Virus record (IMG/VR): IMGVR_UViG_2671181100_000003
Location: 1 to 11,754 of that record
DNA: 11,754 bases
DNA from: a virus
Taxonomy: Duplodnaviria; Heunggongvirae; Uroviricota; Caudoviricetes
Reading direction: 5' to 3' (one strand)
Each line of letters opens with the position of its first letter. Positions within the stretch are counted from its first letter, which is position 1. The position numbers were made by a program, and so were the translations under genes. This document shows, in pieces, positions 194 through 6,364 of this stretch. The notes under the pieces are model-generated. The model was not told the origin of the DNA, made no database searches, and saw nothing but the letters and a program-made list of their open reading frames with translations.

Positions 194-430
194 CTATATC
201 AGATGGGCGTCTAAGTTACCAATTCTCGTCTGATGGCTACATACGGCGGTCAGTTTACGCTTACGTTCAGTTGACACTGGTATTACTTTGTTTTCCTGTG
301 CTGCACATTTAGCTTCAAGCGCATCGAATTTACGCACCAGGTATTCAGCATCTGTTTCATTTACTTTCAGATCTCGCGGTACACATCTCCCACGAAGAAA
401 CCCTTCCATTTCGAAAACATTCATGCGCAT
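194..430 (-). CDS. Small hypothetical protein (76-78 aa) downstream of yfdR-like gene; 3' end possibly altered by the adjacent IS-like element
   Basis: ORF-track frame. Its start overlaps the yfdR-like stop (ATGA at 421-424), suggesting translational coupling with the likely start at 424. No recognisable motif. If the IS-like element ends near 252, the last ~19 codons would be IS-derived. Confidence 0.35.
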   Translation of the reverse strand: MRMNVFEMEGFLRGRCVPRDLKVNETDAEYLVRKFDALEAKCAAQENKVIPVSTERKRKLTAVCSHQTRIGNLDAHLI

Positions 431-957
431 TTGCGTAACTCCGATAACTCGTTAAAGCGTTCCATAAACATCCCGTAGGCATGGCCCGGTGCCAGTGGAA
501 TCACGTTGAACATCTCTGTTGCCGGGATACCTTCCAGTACAGGCCAGAAAGAGCCATCATCAAGCCCGAGATCGCGGCGTTCGGTTGCCAGCATGATGAG
601 ATCGGCATATTTCACGGGCGTACTCATAACTGGGGGTAACCCGTATTTCTCACGGATTACGGCGTCTATTTTTTCTTCCATTTGTTTATAGTCAGGAAGA
701 AGGCGTTTCAGTGGTGCGGGAATGTCCTGGCAATACGCTTCTGTTGCATCATGCATTAACGCTTCAAAAGCAAATTCCTGCGGCACCAGCTGGCTGCAAA
801 GAACCGCATGTTGGGCGACGCTGTAGAAGTGCGAAAGATGACCGGCAAAGCGACAGATATTTGAAAGGGAAACCGCGATATCGTTAATATCGATGTCGTC
901 TTTATTTATCCTGTCATAATAAAAATGCTTCCCGGAAAAAGTTTTAATAAATGACAT
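421..957 (-). CDS. yfdR: HD-domain metal-dependent phosphohydrolase (YfdR-like, putative 5'-deoxynucleotidase)
   Basis: ORF-track frame 421..984 trimmed to the ATG at 957 (MSFIKTF...), which has GGAG ~6 nt upstream, giving 178 aa. HD signature residues are present (AQHAV and LMHDATEAY). Length and sequence match my recollection of the CPS-53 prophage protein YfdR. Confidence 0.75.
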   Translation of the reverse strand: MSFIKTFSGKHFYYDRINKDDIDINDIAVSLSNICRFAGHLSHFYSVAQHAVLCSQLVPQEFAFEALMHDATEAYCQDIPAPLKRLLPDYKQMEEKIDAVIREKYGLPPVMSTPVKYADLIMLATERRDLGLDDGSFWPVLEGIPATEMFNVIPLAPGHAYGMFMERFNELSELRKCA

Positions 958-1084: not shown

Positions 1085-1909
1085 TCAGGCGGTGAAAGTG
1101 CCAATAAAGGTTTCTACTTTGCTGTCCTTGAATTTCTCAACAAGCAGATCACGAAATTCGTTAGCCATTTCTTCCTGCACCGCCTCCAGCTGAATAATGC
1201 GCAGAACCAGTACAGGACGATCGCCAGTGATAATACTGAGGCGTAATTTAAACGGACGTTCTTTCAGACCTTCAAACGGAACGCATTTAAATTCAAATGC
1301 CACTGGCATAATGTCTTTGGTTTTCGCTTCGACAGACTCCATCAGAGAGCGTTTGCCGCTGAAGTCATTGTCTTCAAAATCAGCGGTCTGGTTTGCTTCA
1401 ATCGTGATTTTACGGACAGCCGCAGCCGCTTTTGTTGCCTGAATAGCGTCACCATTAGCATCAAAGCCCACAAGGTAGTCGGCCCAGTCTTCAATCCATT
1501 CTGCTAGTGACTTCTGGGAGTTACGCTCGCCGTTAACAGACAACAGAGCAGAGAACGGTGCTGTCTTTTTCAGTTTGAGTGTGGCGGTGTTATCTGCGTG
1601 ACCTGGTTCATCAATAGTACCTAGGTTAAGCACACTGACGGCACGCATATTATCAGCATCGATAAAGCAGCGGGTGCCTTCATCTGCAAGATCTTTAGAA
1701 TAACGGGTAAAATCATCGATGCTGGCAGTGGAAAGCGCACCACGGAAACGGAAGCGATTTAAATTAAATTTTTCCAGATCATGAATGCGGAAATTCTCAG
1801 GCAATGCCACAGCATCGGCACCAATCTTACTGATAATTTCATTAACACCCTGAGCAGAAATAAGGGCATGGATTTGATTAATTGCGGTTGCGTCTAAGTT
1901 CTGAGACAT
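1085..1909 (-). CDS. yfdQ: DUF2303-family phage early protein (YfdQ-like), function unknown
   Basis: 274-aa ORF with GAGGA 5 nt upstream of the ATG. Length and sequence ([21 protein letters not shown]...) match my recollection of YfdQ from prophage CPS-53. Confidence 0.75.
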
Positions 1910-1974: not shown

Positions 1975-2337
1975 TTAACGACCTGCTGCGCGGAGTTTTC
2001 CGTCAGGTTCACCGGCAAGAGTCAGCAACTGTCCCTGGTCTTCCTGCAGAATAGTCAGGCGACCACCGCGATTGACATACATCGGCGTTTCGGTGGTGTC
2101 TTCTTCGGAAATTTTCCCGCGGTTAGTCGGGCGAACATATGAGAGTTTGTGTTTGATTTTCACTCGGTTCTCATCAAACGGTTCGATTTCTAGGTTGAGC
2201 GAGACCTTACCTTTGGTTTTCGTGTTCATCACACCGGAAGCGACTTCACTGAGAACTGCGCCGATTTTGGTTTCAAATACGCCGCCGTCCAGCTCCCCGA
2301 TAAATGCCTGCACATCAGTACTGCGTTCGCTAGCCAT
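1975..2337 (-). CDS. yfdP: YfdP-like early protein (120 aa), function unknown
   Basis: ORF-track frame 1975..2655 trimmed to the internal ATG at 2337 (MASERSTDVQ...), which has GAGGAG ~7 nt upstream. The 106 upstream codons are P/G/R-rich read-through of GC-rich non-coding DNA. Confidence 0.65.
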   Translation of the reverse strand: MASERSTDVQAFIGELDGGVFETKIGAVLSEVASGVMNTKTKGKVSLNLEIEPFDENRVKIKHKLSYVRPTNRGKISEEDTTETPMYVNRGGRLTILQEDQGQLLTLAGEPDGKLRAAGR

Positions 2338-2385
2338 TTTGCTGCTCCTCATCATATCGACCCTGCAAGGTCGGTTAGTTTCTCC

Positions 2386-2666
2386 ACAAAACAGAGAAGA
2401 ACACCTGCGGTGACTGCCGCCCGGATGGATTGGGTTATGAGCCCGTCGTCCGGTGATGCTCTTCTCTGTTTTGTAAAAAGGACGGTACCAGCCGGAAGCA
2501 AGGGTACAAGCTGGTACCGCCAAGACTACACACAGCATAAAGTTGTGGTGCCGGGTGCCTCCCGGTGCCTGGCGAAGGTTGCACACCAGGCGGGTGGGTA
2601 TCCACAGAAGGTCGACTGTCAGCCTCAACCTTAACCCGCGTGCGCTGAGCCGCATTCACCACAACG
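2386..2666. other. GC-rich non-coding stretch with nested perfect inverted repeats (candidate structured leader RNA or regulatory element of the leftward early operon)
   Basis: Perfect inverted repeats: 15 bp (2386-2400 ACAAAACAGAGAAGA / 2460-2474), 10 bp (2483-2492 CGGTACCAGC / 2510-2519), 9 bp (2542-2550 GTTGTGGTG / 2657-2665), 7 bp (2575-2581 / 2627-2633), plus short GC hairpins at 2551-2565 and 2567-2591. ORFs open in several frames here encode P/G/R-rich, non-protein-like sequence. Confidence 0.3.
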
Positions 2667-2806
2667 CTAAGGATTCTCTCTGGTTGAAAATACTTAGCTG
2701 TTATGTGCCTGCTTTTAGCCACATCAGGCGAGGTGGACCTAGTTATTCCCCAACAACAAGGATTCGGTTAATCTGGATATCCCCAACAACAATAAGAGTA
2801 TTCAAT

Positions 2807-3322
2807 GTGATCGCTGAATTAACGGCAGCAATGACGGCTATTCGTGAAATCGCCCAGATTGCAAAACTAATGAACGAGGCAAAAACTCAAGCTGAAGTAA
2901 ATGCGGCTATTGGTGAGCTGAACTCAAAGCTTGCGTCTATTCAGCGCGAATGCGTGTCTCTCGTTGAACTGCTGGGCTCTTATCAAGAAATAAATGCTTC
3001 TCTCAAAGCTAAAATTGCAGAATTCGAAAACTTTGAGGCTCAGACGGAAGGCTATATCCTTAACCAACTTGAGTCGGGTACTTTTGTATACTCGAAGGAG
3101 GTAATCGTGAACGGTGACAGCATAACCATGCATCTTTGCCCAAAATGTTTTGGACAAAAGATAGTATCGATACTTCAACCATTCCCGGTTAGCGAAGATG
3201 AGCTTTTTCATAAAAGCAGGTGCCTCCACTGTGAAAATAAGTTTCTGATGAATAAAAATCCAGATTACGTATCGCCTCCATCCATTGAGGAGTTGGCCAG
3301 AAAACTTAACGGCAATCTGTAG
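2807..3322 (+). CDS. Coiled-coil protein with C-terminal CxxC...CxxC zinc-ribbon (accessory gene in the immunity region, function unknown)
   Basis: ORF-track frame 2543..3322 trimmed to GTG 2807 (AAGAG 8 nt upstream) or ATG 2831. The N-terminal ~80 aa are heptad-like and A/E/K/L-rich; the C-terminus carries CPKCF and CLHCENK ~24 aa apart. GC is ~42% against ~52-55% in the replication genes. Convergent with the repressor, own terminator downstream. Confidence 0.55.
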   Translation: MIAELTAAMTAIREIAQIAKLMNEAKTQAEVNAAIGELNSKLASIQRECVSLVELLGSYQEINASLKAKIAEFENFEAQTEGYILNQLESGTFVYSKEVIVNGDSITMHLCPKCFGQKIVSILQPFPVSEDELFHKSRCLHCENKFLMNKNPDYVSPPSIEELARKLNGNL

Positions 3323-3347
3323 ATTGCTACTGTTGTGGATATCCAGA

Positions 3348-3360
3348 TTGTTAAAGAGCG
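3348..3360 (-). promoter_or_regulatory. boxA-like element (minus-strand CGCTCTTTAACAA), candidate nut-type antitermination site
   Basis: Minus-strand 13-mer CGCTCTTTAACAA matches the boxA consensus (rrn boxA TGCTCTTTAACAA; lambda nut boxA CGCTCTTA...) as I recall it. It is flanked by hairpins at 3362-3378 and 3312-3327 and lies downstream of a candidate leftward promoter at 3468-3496. Confidence 0.35.
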
Positions 3361-3361
3361 A

Positions 3362-3384
3362 AGCGTCCTGTAGGGCGCTTTTTT
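3362..3384 (+). terminator. Rho-independent terminator of the coiled-coil/zinc-ribbon gene
   Basis: Stem AGCGTCC / GGGCGCT (7 bp, one G-U) with loop TGTA, followed by TTTTTT at 3379-3384, ~40 nt after the stop codon at 3320-3322. Confidence 0.5.
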
Positions 3385-3465
3385 GTTGCTAACGAATCAT
3401 CCTGGACTTCATATGCCCCAGGCGGCTACTTCGTGGGCGTCCTGCCTGTTCGTTATCTTTGATAT

Positions 3466-3553
3466 AAAATCTAACTTAACTTAGCTATTATGGCAAGAGA
3501 AAACACCAAACTTTTCTTAGTTCGGTGCCTTAGTTAGAGAAGAGAGGTCTTAG
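3466..3553 (-). promoter_or_regulatory. Candidate left operator/promoter (OL/PL-like): leftward promoter flanked by CTTAG half-sites
   Basis: On the minus strand: -35 TTGCCA (plus 3491-3496), 17-bp spacer, -10 TAGATT (plus 3468-3473). CTTAG occurs four times within 3480-3553 (3480, 3516, 3529, 3549), the same pentamer that forms the operators between the repressor and cro. Confidence 0.3.
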
Positions 3554-4176
3554 AGTTCGTATTGAACTCCTTTGACTACACCAATGATAAGGCAATTACC
3601 ATTGATAGGGATGTTGGGATACCGAGGATTTAATGGCACTAAAAACTTTTGAGGGCCATCGATGACTAATTTTTTTACTGTAGCTTCGTTTGTTCCATCA
3701 AGTCGAGCGATGACTATTTTTCCATGACGAGGTTCTGCATCTGGATCTACAATCACTGTTGCGCCTTCTGGTATTGTTGGGAGGCCATTAGGGTTAGTCA
3801 TGGAGTCACCTTTAACCTCTAATGCAAATGAGTTATCACCAACCTTTAATGATGTATCTACCCACTTGTCCACTTCACTAAACACTTCTGCTGCCCTGCA
3901 CTCAGTAAACTGCCCAGCCTGAACCCACGATATTACAGGAACTCTGCGCATGTTTGTGACGAGTTTGCCTTCAAACTCAGCACCATAAAGAATGTAATCT
4001 ATTGACGTATTGAAGAACTTCGCTAATTTCGAAAGTGCCTCCCCACCAGGGGTATTGATGTCTTTCTCCCAGTACCCCACAGCAACGTCGCTTACTCCAC
4101 AAAATTTACCCAATTCTTTCTGGGACGTTCTGGTAACTCTTCTCAGAGCTTTTATACGCTGACCAACCGTTTCCAT
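3550..4176 (-). CDS. Phage repressor, cI/LexA-type (N-terminal HTH + C-terminal S24 autopeptidase domain)
   Basis: 208 aa. N-terminal HTH (QKELGKFCGVSDVAVGYWEKD), candidate Ala-Gly cleavage site (VQAGQF), S24 catalytic motif GDSM and Lys in TVKKL. Divergent from a cro-like gene across an operator region. Confidence 0.9.
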   Translation of the reverse strand: METVGQRIKALRRVTRTSQKELGKFCGVSDVAVGYWEKDINTPGGEALSKLAKFFNTSIDYILYGAEFEGKLVTNMRRVPVISWVQAGQFTECRAAEVFSEVDKWVDTSLKVGDNSFALEVKGDSMTNPNGLPTIPEGATVIVDPDAEPRHGKIVIARLDGTNEATVKKLVIDGPQKFLVPLNPRYPNIPINGNCLIIGVVKGVQYEL

Positions 4177-4195: not shown

Positions 4196-4266
4196 TTGCT
4201 AAGTAATCTTAGTTTTTATTGACCAAAGATAGATTTGTAATTAGCATCTAACAAAACTTAGTTTGG
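4196..4266. promoter_or_regulatory. OR-like operator/promoter region between repressor and cro
   Basis: Inverted half-sites CTAAG-TAAT-CTTAG (4199-4212), perfect palindrome AAACTTAGTTT (4254-4264), CTTAGTTT repeated at 4208 and 4257. Rightward promoter candidate -35 TTGACC (4219-4224), 17-bp spacer, -10 TAGCAT (4242-4247), upstream of the cro ATG at 4274. Confidence 0.5.
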
Positions 4267-4273
4267 AGAGCGT

Positions 4274-4474
4274 ATGACAACTGACGATATCGAAAGCTAC
4301 TTCGGCAGTATTGAGAAAGTTGCTGCTTTTTTCGGCATAACAACTGAAGCCGTTTATCAGTGGCGAAACCGTCCGGGCCAGTTAATTCCAAAAGGACGTG
4401 CAGCAGAAGCTGCATATAGAACTTGCGGACGGTTGCCATTTAAACCTGAGCTTTATGAAAAATCTAATGGATAA
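4274..4474 (+). CDS. cro: Cro-type repressor (P22 Cro-like)
   Basis: 66 aa; DIESYFGSIEKVAAFFGITTEAVYQW resembles P22 Cro (DVIDHFGTQRAVAKALGISDAAVSQW). Divergent from the repressor; GGAGAG upstream. Confidence 0.8.
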   Translation: MTTDDIESYFGSIEKVAAFFGITTEAVYQWRNRPGQLIPKGRAAEAAYRTCGRLPFKPELYEKSNG

Positions 4475-5063
4475 ATCGATTAACAGAAACCACAGAACGA
4501 TGAGGCTAACCGTGGGTAAGCATCACTGGAAAGTAGAAAAACAGCCTGAGTGGTACGTGAAAGCTGTCAGAAAAACTATCGCAGCGTTGCCGGGTGGTTA
4601 CGCTGAAGCTGCTGACTGGCTGGATGTAACAGAGAACGCATTATTTAACCGCCTTCGTGCCGATGGCGATCAGATTTTCCCGCTGGGATGGGCAATGATT
4701 TTGCAACGTGCTGGTGGAACTCACTTCATTGCTGACGCTGTGGCGCAGTCTGCAAATGGCGTCTTTGTGTCTCTTCCTGATGTCGAGGATGTGGACAACG
4801 CCGATATCAACCAACGCCTGCTGGAAGTCATTGAACAGATCGGCAGTTATTCAAAACAGATTCGTTCAGCAATTGAAGACGGTGTAGTGGAACCGCATGA
4901 GAAGACAGCAATTAACGATGAGCTGTACCTCTCAATTTCGAAGCTGCAGGAGCATGCAGCACTGGTCTACAAAATCTTTTGCGTTTCAGAAAGTAGTGAC
5001 GCCCGCGAGTGTGCAGCTCCGGGCGCCGTGGCGTGTCGTGACTGTGGAGAAACTAACGCATGA
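4455..5063 (+). CDS. CII-position early regulatory protein (CII/CP76-like by position; start uncertain)
   Basis: ORF-track frame 4398..5063. The GTG at 4398 has no usable SD spacing and overlaps cro by 77 nt; ATG 4455 or ATG 4467 (overlapping the cro stop) are likelier starts. About 200 aa, first gene after cro. Family assignment is by position and vague recollection only. Confidence 0.45.
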
Positions 5064-5398: not shown

Positions 5399-5418
5399 AG
5401 GTCGGTCATGAGCACTAA
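5239..5418 (+). CDS. Small hypothetical protein (59 aa) from a TTG start; alternatively the C-terminal half of a frameshifted gene starting at 5060
   Basis: Not in the ORF track (no ATG). AAGGAG at 5225-5230, 8 nt before TTG 5239. Translation [59 protein letters not shown] is compositionally protein-like. Stop at 5416-5418 overlaps the O-like start. Confidence 0.3.
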
Positions 5419-6364
5419 ATTAACCGGCTATGTATGGGATGGTTGCGCTGCATCAGGCATGAAATTATCCAGCGTGGCAATTATGGCCCGCCTGGCTGAT
5501 TTCAGTAATGACGAAGGTGTGTGCTGGCCATCAATTGAAACCATTGCCCGCCAGATTGGCGCGGGGATGAGTACCGTCAGAACGGCTATCGCACGGCTGG
5601 AAGCAGAAGGCTGGTTAACGCGTAGGGCGCGTCGCCAGGGTAACCGCAATGCGTCGAATGTTTATCAGCTTAACGTTGCGAAGCTTCAGGCAGCGGCATT
5701 TTCTCAACTGTCAGATTCTGACCCGTCAAAATCTGACGCATCAAAATCTGACGCATCAAAATCTGACCCGTCAAAATTTGATGCGTCGAAATCTGGCAAA
5801 AAAGCGGGTTTTCACCCGTCAGAATCTGGTGGGGATCCGTCAGTAAAATCAAAACATGATCCGTCAGATAAAAAAACTTCTCGTCCGGACGCTTCGCAAC
5901 CGGACACGCAGACGGCTGAACAGGATTTTTTAACTCGCCATCCTGATGCGGTTGTATTCAGCCCTAAAAAGCGCCAGTGGGGGACGCAGGATGATTTGAC
6001 CTGCGCACAGTGGCTCTGGAAAAAAATCATCGCCCTGTACGAGCATGCCGCCGAATGTGACGGCGAGGTGGTTCGTCCCAAAGAACCGAACTGGACAGCC
6101 TGGGCAAACGAAATTCGCCTGATGTGTGTGCAGGATGGTCGTACTCATAAACAAATCTGCGAGATGTACAGCCGCGTCAGTCGCGATCCGTTCTGGTGCC
6201 GTAACGTGCTCAGCCCGTCGAAGCTGCGGGAAAAATGGGATGAGCTTTCCCTGCGCTTATCGCCGTCCGTCAGCACGTACACCGAAAAACGCGAAGACCC
6301 GTACTTCAAAGCCAGTTACGACAACGTGGACTACAGCCAGATCCCGGCAGGATTCAGGGGGTGA
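5408..6364 (+). CDS. Replication initiator, lambda O-like (N-terminal HTH DNA-binding domain, repeat linker, C-terminal domain)
   Basis: 318 aa, GAGGT 5 nt upstream. N-terminal HTH (SSVAIMARLADFSNDEGVCWPSIETIARQIGAGMSTVRTAIARLEAEGWL) is typical of phage replication initiators. An internal tandem-repeat block encodes (S/P)KSDA pentapeptides, like the iteron-encoded linker of lambda O. Position after cro/CII. Confidence 0.7.
   Translation: MSTKLTGYVWDGCAASGMKLSSVAIMARLADFSNDEGVCWPSIETIARQIGAGMSTVRTAIARLEAEGWLTRRARRQGNRNASNVYQLNVAKLQAAAFSQLSDSDPSKSDASKSDASKSDPSKFDASKSGKKAGFHPSESGGDPSVKSKHDPSDKKTSRPDASQPDTQTAEQDFLTRHPDAVVFSPKKRQWGTQDDLTCAQWLWKKIIALYEHAAECDGEVVRPKEPNWTAWANEIRLMCVQDGRTHKQICEMYSRVSRDPFWCRNVLSPSKLREKWDELSLRLSPSVSTYTEKREDPYFKASYDNVDYSQIPAGFRG
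5711..5800. repeat. Six tandem 15-bp repeats inside the O-like gene: candidate replication-origin iterons
   Basis: Units TCAGATTCTGACCCG / TCAAAATCTGACGCA (x2) / TCAAAATCTGACCCG / TCAAAATTTGATGCG / TCGAAATCTGGCAAA. Each junction forms the dyad CGTCA-AAATC-TGACG. Degenerate copies and an A-rich stretch follow to ~5880. Confidence 0.5.

Follow-up and report, generated by a model that had tools for sequence, protein, structure and literature searches.

A conserved BoxA without boxB or N in the early-left leader of SfV/CPS-53-like prophages is a candidate site of N-independent Nus factor recruitment

What might a BoxA do on the early-left transcript of a prophage in which no N antiterminator can be recognised? 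The question is raised by a stretch of viral DNA of 11,754 nt (here called the window) that belongs to a prophage of the SfV/CPS-53-like type in Escherichia coli. Its sequence is identical to a stretch of the strain 1283 chromosome, where the prophage has tRNA-Thr and proA as neighbours and thrW as its integration site. An initial annotation, made from the letters alone, had reported a near-exact boxA on the minus strand at 3348–3360 with a hairpin on either side, and had considered that the site might be N-independent, for instance put-like, or an orphaned nut site. The features needed to follow the argument are these:

421–957, minus strand: yfdR (RefSeq annotation map)
1085–1909, minus strand: yfdQ (RefSeq annotation map)
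1975–2337, minus strand: yfdP, the first annotated protein gene of the early-left operon
2352–2662, minus strand: pseudogene, labelled 'frameshifted hypothetical' in RefSeq
2472–2695, minus strand: STnc100/PasD-like prophage sRNA (Rfam RF02076), between BoxA and yfdP
2770–2788: left arm of an inverted repeat, in the 5' region of the convergent gene
2807–3322, plus strand: convergent accessory gene of 171 aa (RefSeq WP_000559916.1), antisense to the pL transcript
3312–3327: 6-bp hairpin over the stop codon of the convergent gene
3331–3349: right arm of the 19-nt inverted repeat, AATCTGGATATCCACAACA on the minus strand, abutting BoxA
3348–3360, minus strand: BoxA, CGCUCUUUAACAA, with the core GCUCUUUAACA at 3349–3359
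3360–3387, plus strand: predicted rightward intrinsic terminator (hairpin 3360–3381 plus T6)
3389–3460, minus strand: 72-nt structured leader RNA with covarying helices and an invariant 22-nt core
3468–3496, minus strand: early-left promoter candidate pL, TTGCCA-17-TAGATT (9/12 in a consensus scan)
3471–3484: operator oL, CTAACTTAACTTAG, inside the pL spacer
3550–4176, minus strand: gene of a cI-type (LexA/S24 family) repressor, directly upstream of pL on the same strand
4199–4212 and 4248–4261: operator palindromes between cI and cro, of the same 14-bp family as oL
4274–4474, plus strand: cro
4512–5063, plus strand: cII-like ymfL

The early-left operon runs in the order yfdP-yfdQ-yfdR and on to xis-int; 3' of ymfL lie replication genes and then, just past the right end of the window, a Q-family antiterminator.

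The minus strand at 3348–3360 reads exactly CGCTCTTTAACAA, the only match to this 13-mer in the window even if up to three mismatches are allowed. Within it, GCTCTTTAACA (3349–3359, minus strand) is the sole perfect match in the window to GYTCTTTAANA, the functional BoxA consensus of Baniulyte et al. 2017 (PMC5725501). By our own arithmetic the exact 13-mer would be expected about 3.5e-4 times by chance in 2 x 11.7 kb, and a chance match is ruled out by its uniqueness in the window together with its positional enrichment across related loci (see below). The match first reported as near-exact is therefore exact, unique in the window and conserved in its consensus, and judged by these features the 13-mer is a genuine BoxA element of the early-left leader. 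It lies ~100 nt into the transcript, counted from the estimated pL start, and is predicted to be mostly unpaired within the leader (0.57–0.73).

A leftward promoter candidate had been placed at 3468–3496 among CTTAG operator-like sites; we find it there as TTGCCA-17-TAGATT, with an operator in its spacer and a start estimated near 3461. Palindromes of the form CTAAS-N4-CTTAG occur three times in the window, against a chance expectation of 0.03 from shuffles. Since one of them lies in the pL spacer and the other two between cI and cro, pL can be regarded as the repressor-controlled early-left promoter. A promoter is present at the equivalent position in 13 aligned phages, and a simple scan found no other leftward promoter.

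Hairpins do stand on both sides of the BoxA, at 3360–3381 (originally given as 3362–3378) and at 3312–3327, and neither has the properties of a boxB. On the plus strand the former consists of 9 bp including one G·U (−12.9 kcal/mol) and is followed by T6, which is the GC-rich hairpin and U-tract of an intrinsic terminator; on the minus strand a C·A mismatch takes the position of the G·U, the hairpin is weaker (−7.2 kcal/mol) and its U-tract is broken up. Across 19 variants of the module its stem is conserved, while the loop occurs in nine forms. We regard it as mainly a rightward terminator of convergent cassettes, predicted to be weak at best in the leftward direction, which would shield pL and cI from the convergent gene. 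The latter hairpin has 6 bp, a loop of 4 nt and an overlap with the plus-strand gene at its stop codon, and neither its sequence nor its loop is conserved in relatives. As boxB both were rejected, the one for its freely varying loop, the other for its overlap with the stop codon and its lack of conservation.

The closeness of BoxA and terminator raises the possibility that the likeness to BoxA is incidental and that the 13-mer is the U-rich distal side of a bidirectional terminator, which would end transcripts of the convergent gene in the rightward direction and, weakly, those from pRM/pL. Indeed, the BoxA abuts the hairpin, with A6 on one side and UUCGCUCUUU on the other, and in most Enterobacteriaceae loci the two occur together. 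However, a Kluyvera locus and five Xenorhabdus loci have a BoxA at this place and no such hairpin, the leftward form of the hairpin is poor (−7.2 kcal/mol, C·A mismatch), and a degenerate U-tract would not need an exact 11-nt consensus, whose GC interruption weakens a terminator. We therefore think this origin of the 13-mer highly improbable.

In the window, only a 3-bp palindrome and the hairpin at 3312–3327 follow the BoxA, and no boxB is found; no N-like arginine-rich ORF is present either, as judged by a search for an N-terminal Arg-rich motif. A rightward BoxA that could be the nutR counterpart is likewise absent from the window, both as a match with up to three mismatches and as a rightward GYTCTTTAANA. 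A hidden N gene was rejected for want of such an ORF and of a tblastn match (see below), and neither the 68-aa first ORF of relatives nor the 171-aa gene has N-like features. For comparison with relatives we assembled 92 stretches of species-representative Enterobacterales genomes that contain the exact 22-nt core of the leader RNA. In 17 of these 92 loci a perfect GYTCTTTAANA follows the leader RNA at 4–82 nt on the same strand, and no further same-strand match exists within 3 kb on either side (92 loci, ~420 kb scanned). Five of the 17 are Xenorhabdus prophages, in which no hairpin precedes BoxA and boxB-like stem-loops follow it: GCGCUGAAAAAGCGC with a lambda-type GAAAA loop in two loci, and covarying stems with a GGCAYUCU loop in two others. 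An ORF with an arginine-rich motif (e.g. MTKVTVIRSDYAARRYERRAAFLAKK) comes after this boxB; its match to Pfam N_peptide has an E-value of 1.7e-4 and 22.4 bits, under the gathering score of 27.9. All five loci have a second BoxA-boxB on the opposite strand 1.1–1.25 kb away, which in the two loci with flanks examined lies ~10 nt past the stop codon of a cro-like HTH gene. By this layout the Xenorhabdus sites are canonical nutL and nutR.

As BoxA, boxB and N occupy the matching position in Xenorhabdus, the BoxA of the window is positionally equivalent to that of nutL, which is the outcome of the alignment with nutL regions of related phages that the initial annotation had proposed. Its remark that no N-like gene is found among the first leftward genes also stands, given the lack of an ORF with an arginine-rich motif and a tblastn search of the window with the Xenorhabdus N-like proteins that gave only E-values above 1. 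With N, boxB and a rightward BoxA all absent, an N-independent or orphaned nut site was the right frame for this locus. The window shares with lambda nutL the BoxA sequence on an early transcript and its place shortly 3' of a repressor-controlled leftward promoter; unlike lambda, this prophage lacks a boxB hairpin whose loop is conserved, an N-like protein and a second site on the rightward side to form a pair.

A lone BoxA in such a place might be an inert leftover of nutL, whose boxB and N were recently lost to the accessory cassettes that replaced them. The absence of boxB, an N-like ORF and a rightward BoxA from the window is what such a relic would look like, the N-bearing relatives show a possible ancestral state, and many relatives manage without any BoxA. 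The distribution of the element bears directly on this. By BLAST and phage alignment, the leader 3' of pL is made up of three modules, namely an RNA of ~60–72 nt, the A6-flanked hairpin and BoxA. The RNA module is common to SfV, SfII, SfIV, mEp460, ST64B, ZF40, YeP1-3 and Pantoea AH07, and it is also found in Klebsiella phages, SPN3UB, SEN34 and phiNP; it spans immunity types and genera and always lies just 3' of a repressor gene and promoter. SfV, SfII and mEp460 have the RNA module and neither hairpin nor BoxA. As BoxA is missing despite the leader RNA from these three, from ST64B and from 53 N-less loci at the species level, it cannot be essential to this phage type.

Where BoxA is present, it is kept with precision. 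In 111 of 118 IMG/VR loci with the hairpin the next 13-mer is AGCTCTTTAACAA, and the CGCTCTTTAACAA of the window is rare; the commonest variant thus starts with A, not with C or U, a base that lies outside the functional consensus. Among 19 distinct variants of the module GCTCTTTA is invariant, the base before the G is A, C or T, the N position of the consensus is C or A, and the consensus is broken in only one. Hairpin-BoxA modules occur in E. coli, Atlantibacter, Kosakonia, Buttiauxella, Scandinavium, Raoultella and Enterobacter, and a Kluyvera locus of the same immunity type as the window has the exact 13-mer with no hairpin. In complete E. coli genomes the module is covered to at least 80% in 1112 of 5426 and annotated in none. 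At least five unrelated downstream contexts start 2–7 nt after BoxA, which places it on the pL-leader side of the mosaic joint. That BoxA might be part of the cassette of the convergent gene was rejected, since the hairpin-BoxA module adjoins at least four unrelated convergent families and also a co-directional ORF.

The 13-mer is thus conserved in related prophages, with GCTCTTTA invariant in the 19 variants and the consensus present in 17/92 loci, and it is this pattern that a relic explains poorly. N-less loci of all seven taxa named above and of Kluyvera have kept the 11-nt consensus intact, next to a hairpin loop, a flanking base and downstream DNA that all vary; the mosaic joints repeatedly spare it, and it is strongly associated with convergent genes. 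Conservation of this kind favours retained function over a dead relic, and we consider an inert remnant unlikely.

What function could be retained depends on the RNA that follows. The initial annotation had traced a leftward route antisense through a coiled-coil gene and across a structured region to yfdP, and the gene map and an STnc100-like match confirm it: from pL, the transcript would run through the antisense strand of 2807–3322, then the structured RNA and then yfdP, with ~1 kb untranslated. Indeed, the 1 kb beyond BoxA in the window has no co-directional ORF and consists of antisense or non-coding sequence. The 171-aa protein encoded on the other strand contains a coiled coil plus CxxC...CxxC and belongs to phrog_1244 (PHROGs 2e-59, function unknown there); it has no PADLOC match. 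The match to RF02076 scores 43.4 bits, short of the gathering score of 47, with an E-value of 7.8e-7, and at the 3' end of the STnc100-like RNA lies a leftward intrinsic terminator at ~2515–2470, with a stem of −20.3 kcal/mol plus U5. The C-over-G ratio, tried as an indicator of rut sites, is 0.8–1.4 along the leftward RNA and was set aside as uninformative.

The same situation recurs in relatives. Counting a convergent ORF of at least 120 aa as directly downstream if its end falls within 350 nt of the leader RNA, we find one in 11/12 N-less loci with BoxA vs 8/53 without (Fisher p = 2e-7, with no correction for phylogeny; as the loci share ancestry, their numbers exaggerate how independent they are). 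A lone BoxA is therefore found where the pL transcript would immediately run antisense through another gene, and the convergent genes of the N-less BoxA loci fall into four unrelated families. The link could also be one of hitch-hiking with the adjacent rightward terminator.

The convergent gene is flanked by a 19-nt inverted repeat (2770–2788 and 3331–3349) whose arms are 95% complementary and whose 13-nt core recurs in other genera at either end of the cassette, with no compensatory changes. Two uses of this repeat were tried and rejected: an invertible switch, as the flipped junction occurs in 0/5426 E. coli genomes, and a long-range RNA helix in the style of the rrn processing stalk, as the variants in other genera are uncompensated.

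BoxA need not act in favour of transcription. At an element like that of suhB, a Nus complex would repress translation of the next gene and promote Rho termination, and the early-left operon would be kept low. In the relatives met most often, of the SfIV, 689R6 and Kati kind (85 loci sampled), a 68-aa ORF that has GAGGAG as its ribosome-binding site starts ~45 nt after BoxA, a distance that falls inside the 50-nt range to the start codon used in predicting suhB-type targets (PMC5725501). As no co-directional ORF follows the BoxA of the window, however, such control would be without a target here, and for this locus we hold it to be very unlikely. The suhB 5'-UTR BoxA (Baniulyte et al. 2017, PMC5725501) and the present one are alike in their perfect consensus and, for SfIV-type relatives, in lying within 50 nt of a start codon; they differ in that the suhB element represses and the window has no downstream ORF to repress.

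A different partner for BoxA might be the RNA that precedes it. Besides its helices P1 and P3, the leader RNA has a 22-nt core that never changes, GGCAGGACGCCCACGAAGUAGC, which is found exactly in 92 species-representative genome stretches. Over 57 distinct sequences, P1 and P3 are paired in 96.8% of the cells (27–45% with the partners slid), and 191 cells have changed on both sides. Columns 37/44 suggest a further 3-bp helix and hence a pseudoknot. The covariance model R1 scores 91.5 bits on the window and finds exactly one copy per locus; no second, rightward copy is present in the window or in the 92 loci. No Rfam match was obtained even at E-values up to 10, and the string of the 22-nt core was not found in the literature searched. 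The 72-nt leader RNA is an undescribed motif with strong covariation.

Its place invites comparison with put. The leader RNA starts within ~10 nt of the estimated pL start, as a put-type RNA would in an N-less phage, and like the put RNAs of HK022 and HK639 it is a structured RNA of ~70 nt right after pL in N-less lambdoid phages. The architecture is different, with a closing helix, two hairpins and the possible pseudoknot, and no similarity to putL/putR in sequence or structure is seen: R1 finds nothing in the HK022 and HK639 genomes at E-values up to 10. On these grounds, and for want of a match in Rfam, its identification as a put RNA or as a member of an Rfam family was rejected. Moreover, in contrast to put, the leader RNA coexists with N/nut in Xenorhabdus; because it precedes a canonical N/nut there, it is not simply a substitute for N. 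Of the put-like idea put forward at the outset, a conserved structured 72-nt RNA just upstream of BoxA is what remains, whereas kinship with HK022/HK639 put and exclusive use in place of N do not.

The RNA could still replace boxB and N by way of RNA polymerase or another factor, with BoxA adding the Nus factors, which would allow read-through of both intrinsic and Rho-dependent terminators. The leader RNA is invariably the first element from pL, with its invariant 22-nt core and strongly covarying helices, BoxA, where present, always lies just 3' of it, and the STnc100-like terminator must somehow be overcome. On the other hand, the RNA also precedes BoxA-boxB-N in Xenorhabdus and most loci have the RNA and no BoxA, so that the two are separable; one copy of the RNA exists per locus and none on the rightward operon, and the failure of R1 to find anything in the HK022 and HK639 genomes counts in the same direction. 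Such a division of labour seems to us doubtful. The same low degree of confidence, somewhat below that given to a relic, applies to the wider proposal that the leader RNA, pseudoknotted and used by a large group of temperate Enterobacterales phages, forms with the lone BoxA, in N-less lineages, a protein-independent processive antitermination site of a third kind beside N/nut and put. If it were true, transcription from pL could cross convergent accessory genes and sRNA terminators.

With about even confidence we favour the reading that the conserved BoxA at the nutL position of the pL transcript, kept without N and boxB, acts by N-independent Nus recruitment against Rho. We infer transcription from pL, Nus binding and counteraction of Rho at BoxA by analogy with known systems. 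The leader cassette has the order pL, 72-nt structured RNA, rightward-terminating hairpin and BoxA. After induction, RNA polymerase from pL would transcribe BoxA ~100 nt from the start; NusB-NusE(S10) would bind it and, with NusA, NusG and SuhB, form a complex of the rrn/CRISPR type with no need of N. This complex would make the polymerase Rho-resistant across ~1 kb of untranslatable RNA, and the polymerase could then reach yfdP and the rest of the early-left operon. Two features are those of an N-independent BoxA: a perfect GYTCTTTAANA on the transcribed strand, and its conservation across species at a fixed place of the transcript.

The closest parallels point the same way. To the BoxA of the rrn leader, UGCUCUUUAACAA, that of the window is identical in 12/13 positions. 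In both no phage protein is needed (in the prophage as proposed here), a long untranslated RNA follows, and a hairpin lies upstream, as rrn boxB does; the hairpin of the window differs, though, in having a free-varying loop and in being a rightward terminator, no boxC was identified, and the context is a prophage early operon. Complexes of the rrn type are said, after Albrechtsen et al. in 1990, to act mainly on Rho and poorly on intrinsic terminators. Given this weakness and the strong STnc100-like terminator, BoxA alone cannot explain early-left expression, and a further factor may contribute to reaching the early-left genes. BoxA guards rRNA and the long untranslated transcripts of CRISPR arrays against Rho, with NusB/E, NusA, NusG and SuhB rendering RNA polymerase Rho-resistant on such RNA (PMC7665894). 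The CRISPR BoxA (Stringer et al. 2020, PMC7665894) likewise stands alone, close to where a long non-coding transcript begins, and is proposed to block Rho; in the window, by comparison, the polymerase would cross the antisense of a convergent accessory gene and an sRNA-like element before coming to protein genes.

Outside rRNA operons, a working BoxA has until now been demonstrated at suhB and CRISPR arrays. N-independent BoxA as such is already known; what is new here is its occurrence in a prophage early leader, and if the proposed action is true, N-independent Nus antitermination would be extended to phage development. The prophages concerned are very common in E. coli and Shigella, including serotype converters of the SfIV type, and roughly every fifth complete E. 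coli genome has the module. The leaders compared here form a natural series, from those of Xenorhabdus with BoxA-boxB-N, through those of Enterobacteriaceae with BoxA alone, to those of SfV and ST64B with neither, and across many genera an unannotated, strongly covarying RNA motif is exposed at the very start of pL transcripts. For the phages themselves, a BoxA that acts against Rho would explain how convergent accessory genes are tolerated between pL and the genes of recombination and excision.

The very start of the transcript from pL, the candidate early-left promoter, is a structured leader RNA, and further elements were located in the early-left region and in the replication gene.

Structured and repeated elements in the window
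3389-3460, minus strand: structured leader RNA, 72 nt
2807-3322, plus strand: convergent gene, 171 aa, phrog_1244
2770-2788 and 3331-3349: 19-nt inverted repeat, either side of the convergent gene
2472-2695, minus strand: STnc100/PasD-like prophage sRNA; Rfam match of 43.4 bits, slightly below the gathering score of 47
5710-5800, plus strand: 15-nt iterons, five to six copies, TCTGACSCRTCAAAA, within the replication gene (5408-6364)

The leader RNA has an invariant core of 22 nt (GGCAGGACGCCCACGAAGUAGC) and two helices with heavy covariation; a pseudoknot is possible. Prophages from many genera of Enterobacterales have it, with one copy at each locus; no Rfam family matches it, and our literature search did not find it. 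In five Xenorhabdus prophage loci (L197, L201, L198, L190 and L150) it directly precedes each nutL; these loci carry canonical nutL and nutR sites accompanied by N-like ARM proteins, and their boxB hairpins differ in specificity, with at least two types, one having a GAAAA pentaloop and another a GGCAYUCU loop.

The protein of the convergent gene, which lies antisense to the pL transcript, combines an N-terminal coiled coil with a C-terminal CxxC...CxxC motif and has no match in PADLOC. The gene stands after pL and ahead of the early-left genes and has a terminator of its own, a placement typical of accessory genes expressed in the lysogen. The core of the flanking inverted repeat is AATCTGGATATCC, within which lies the palindrome TGGATATCCA, and the homologous cassette of other genera keeps the repeat at each end. 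Compensatory changes between its arms were not found, and none of 5426 E. coli genomes carries the cassette in flipped arrangement; candidate roles are a protein-binding site or a cassette boundary. Separately, TCCCCAACAACAA occurs twice upstream of the convergent gene (2747-2759 and 2780-2792), and in SfIV-type, Kluyvera and Xenorhabdus leaders BoxA, the 13-mer downstream of pL, is followed by a C-rich motif that resembles it.

The STnc100-like RNA carries a strong intrinsic terminator. RefSeq annotates an overlapping frameshifted hypothetical protein (2352-2662), probably a structured RNA that was mis-called. The pL-core 14-mer ACTTAGCTATTATG (plus strand, 3479-3492) recurs with one change at 2692-2705, immediately upstream of this RNA's 5' end, a recurrence that hints at a nearby promoter duplicated from or related to pL. 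Between yfdR and yfdQ, at 914-1093 on the minus strand, there is a second STnc100-like match, a very weak one with an E value of 0.9.

The iterons, some of which form an inverted repeat, also produced a spurious Rfam match to mir-5880. They probably constitute the phage replication origin within the initiator gene, as in lambda, whose origin likewise lies inside its initiator gene, O.
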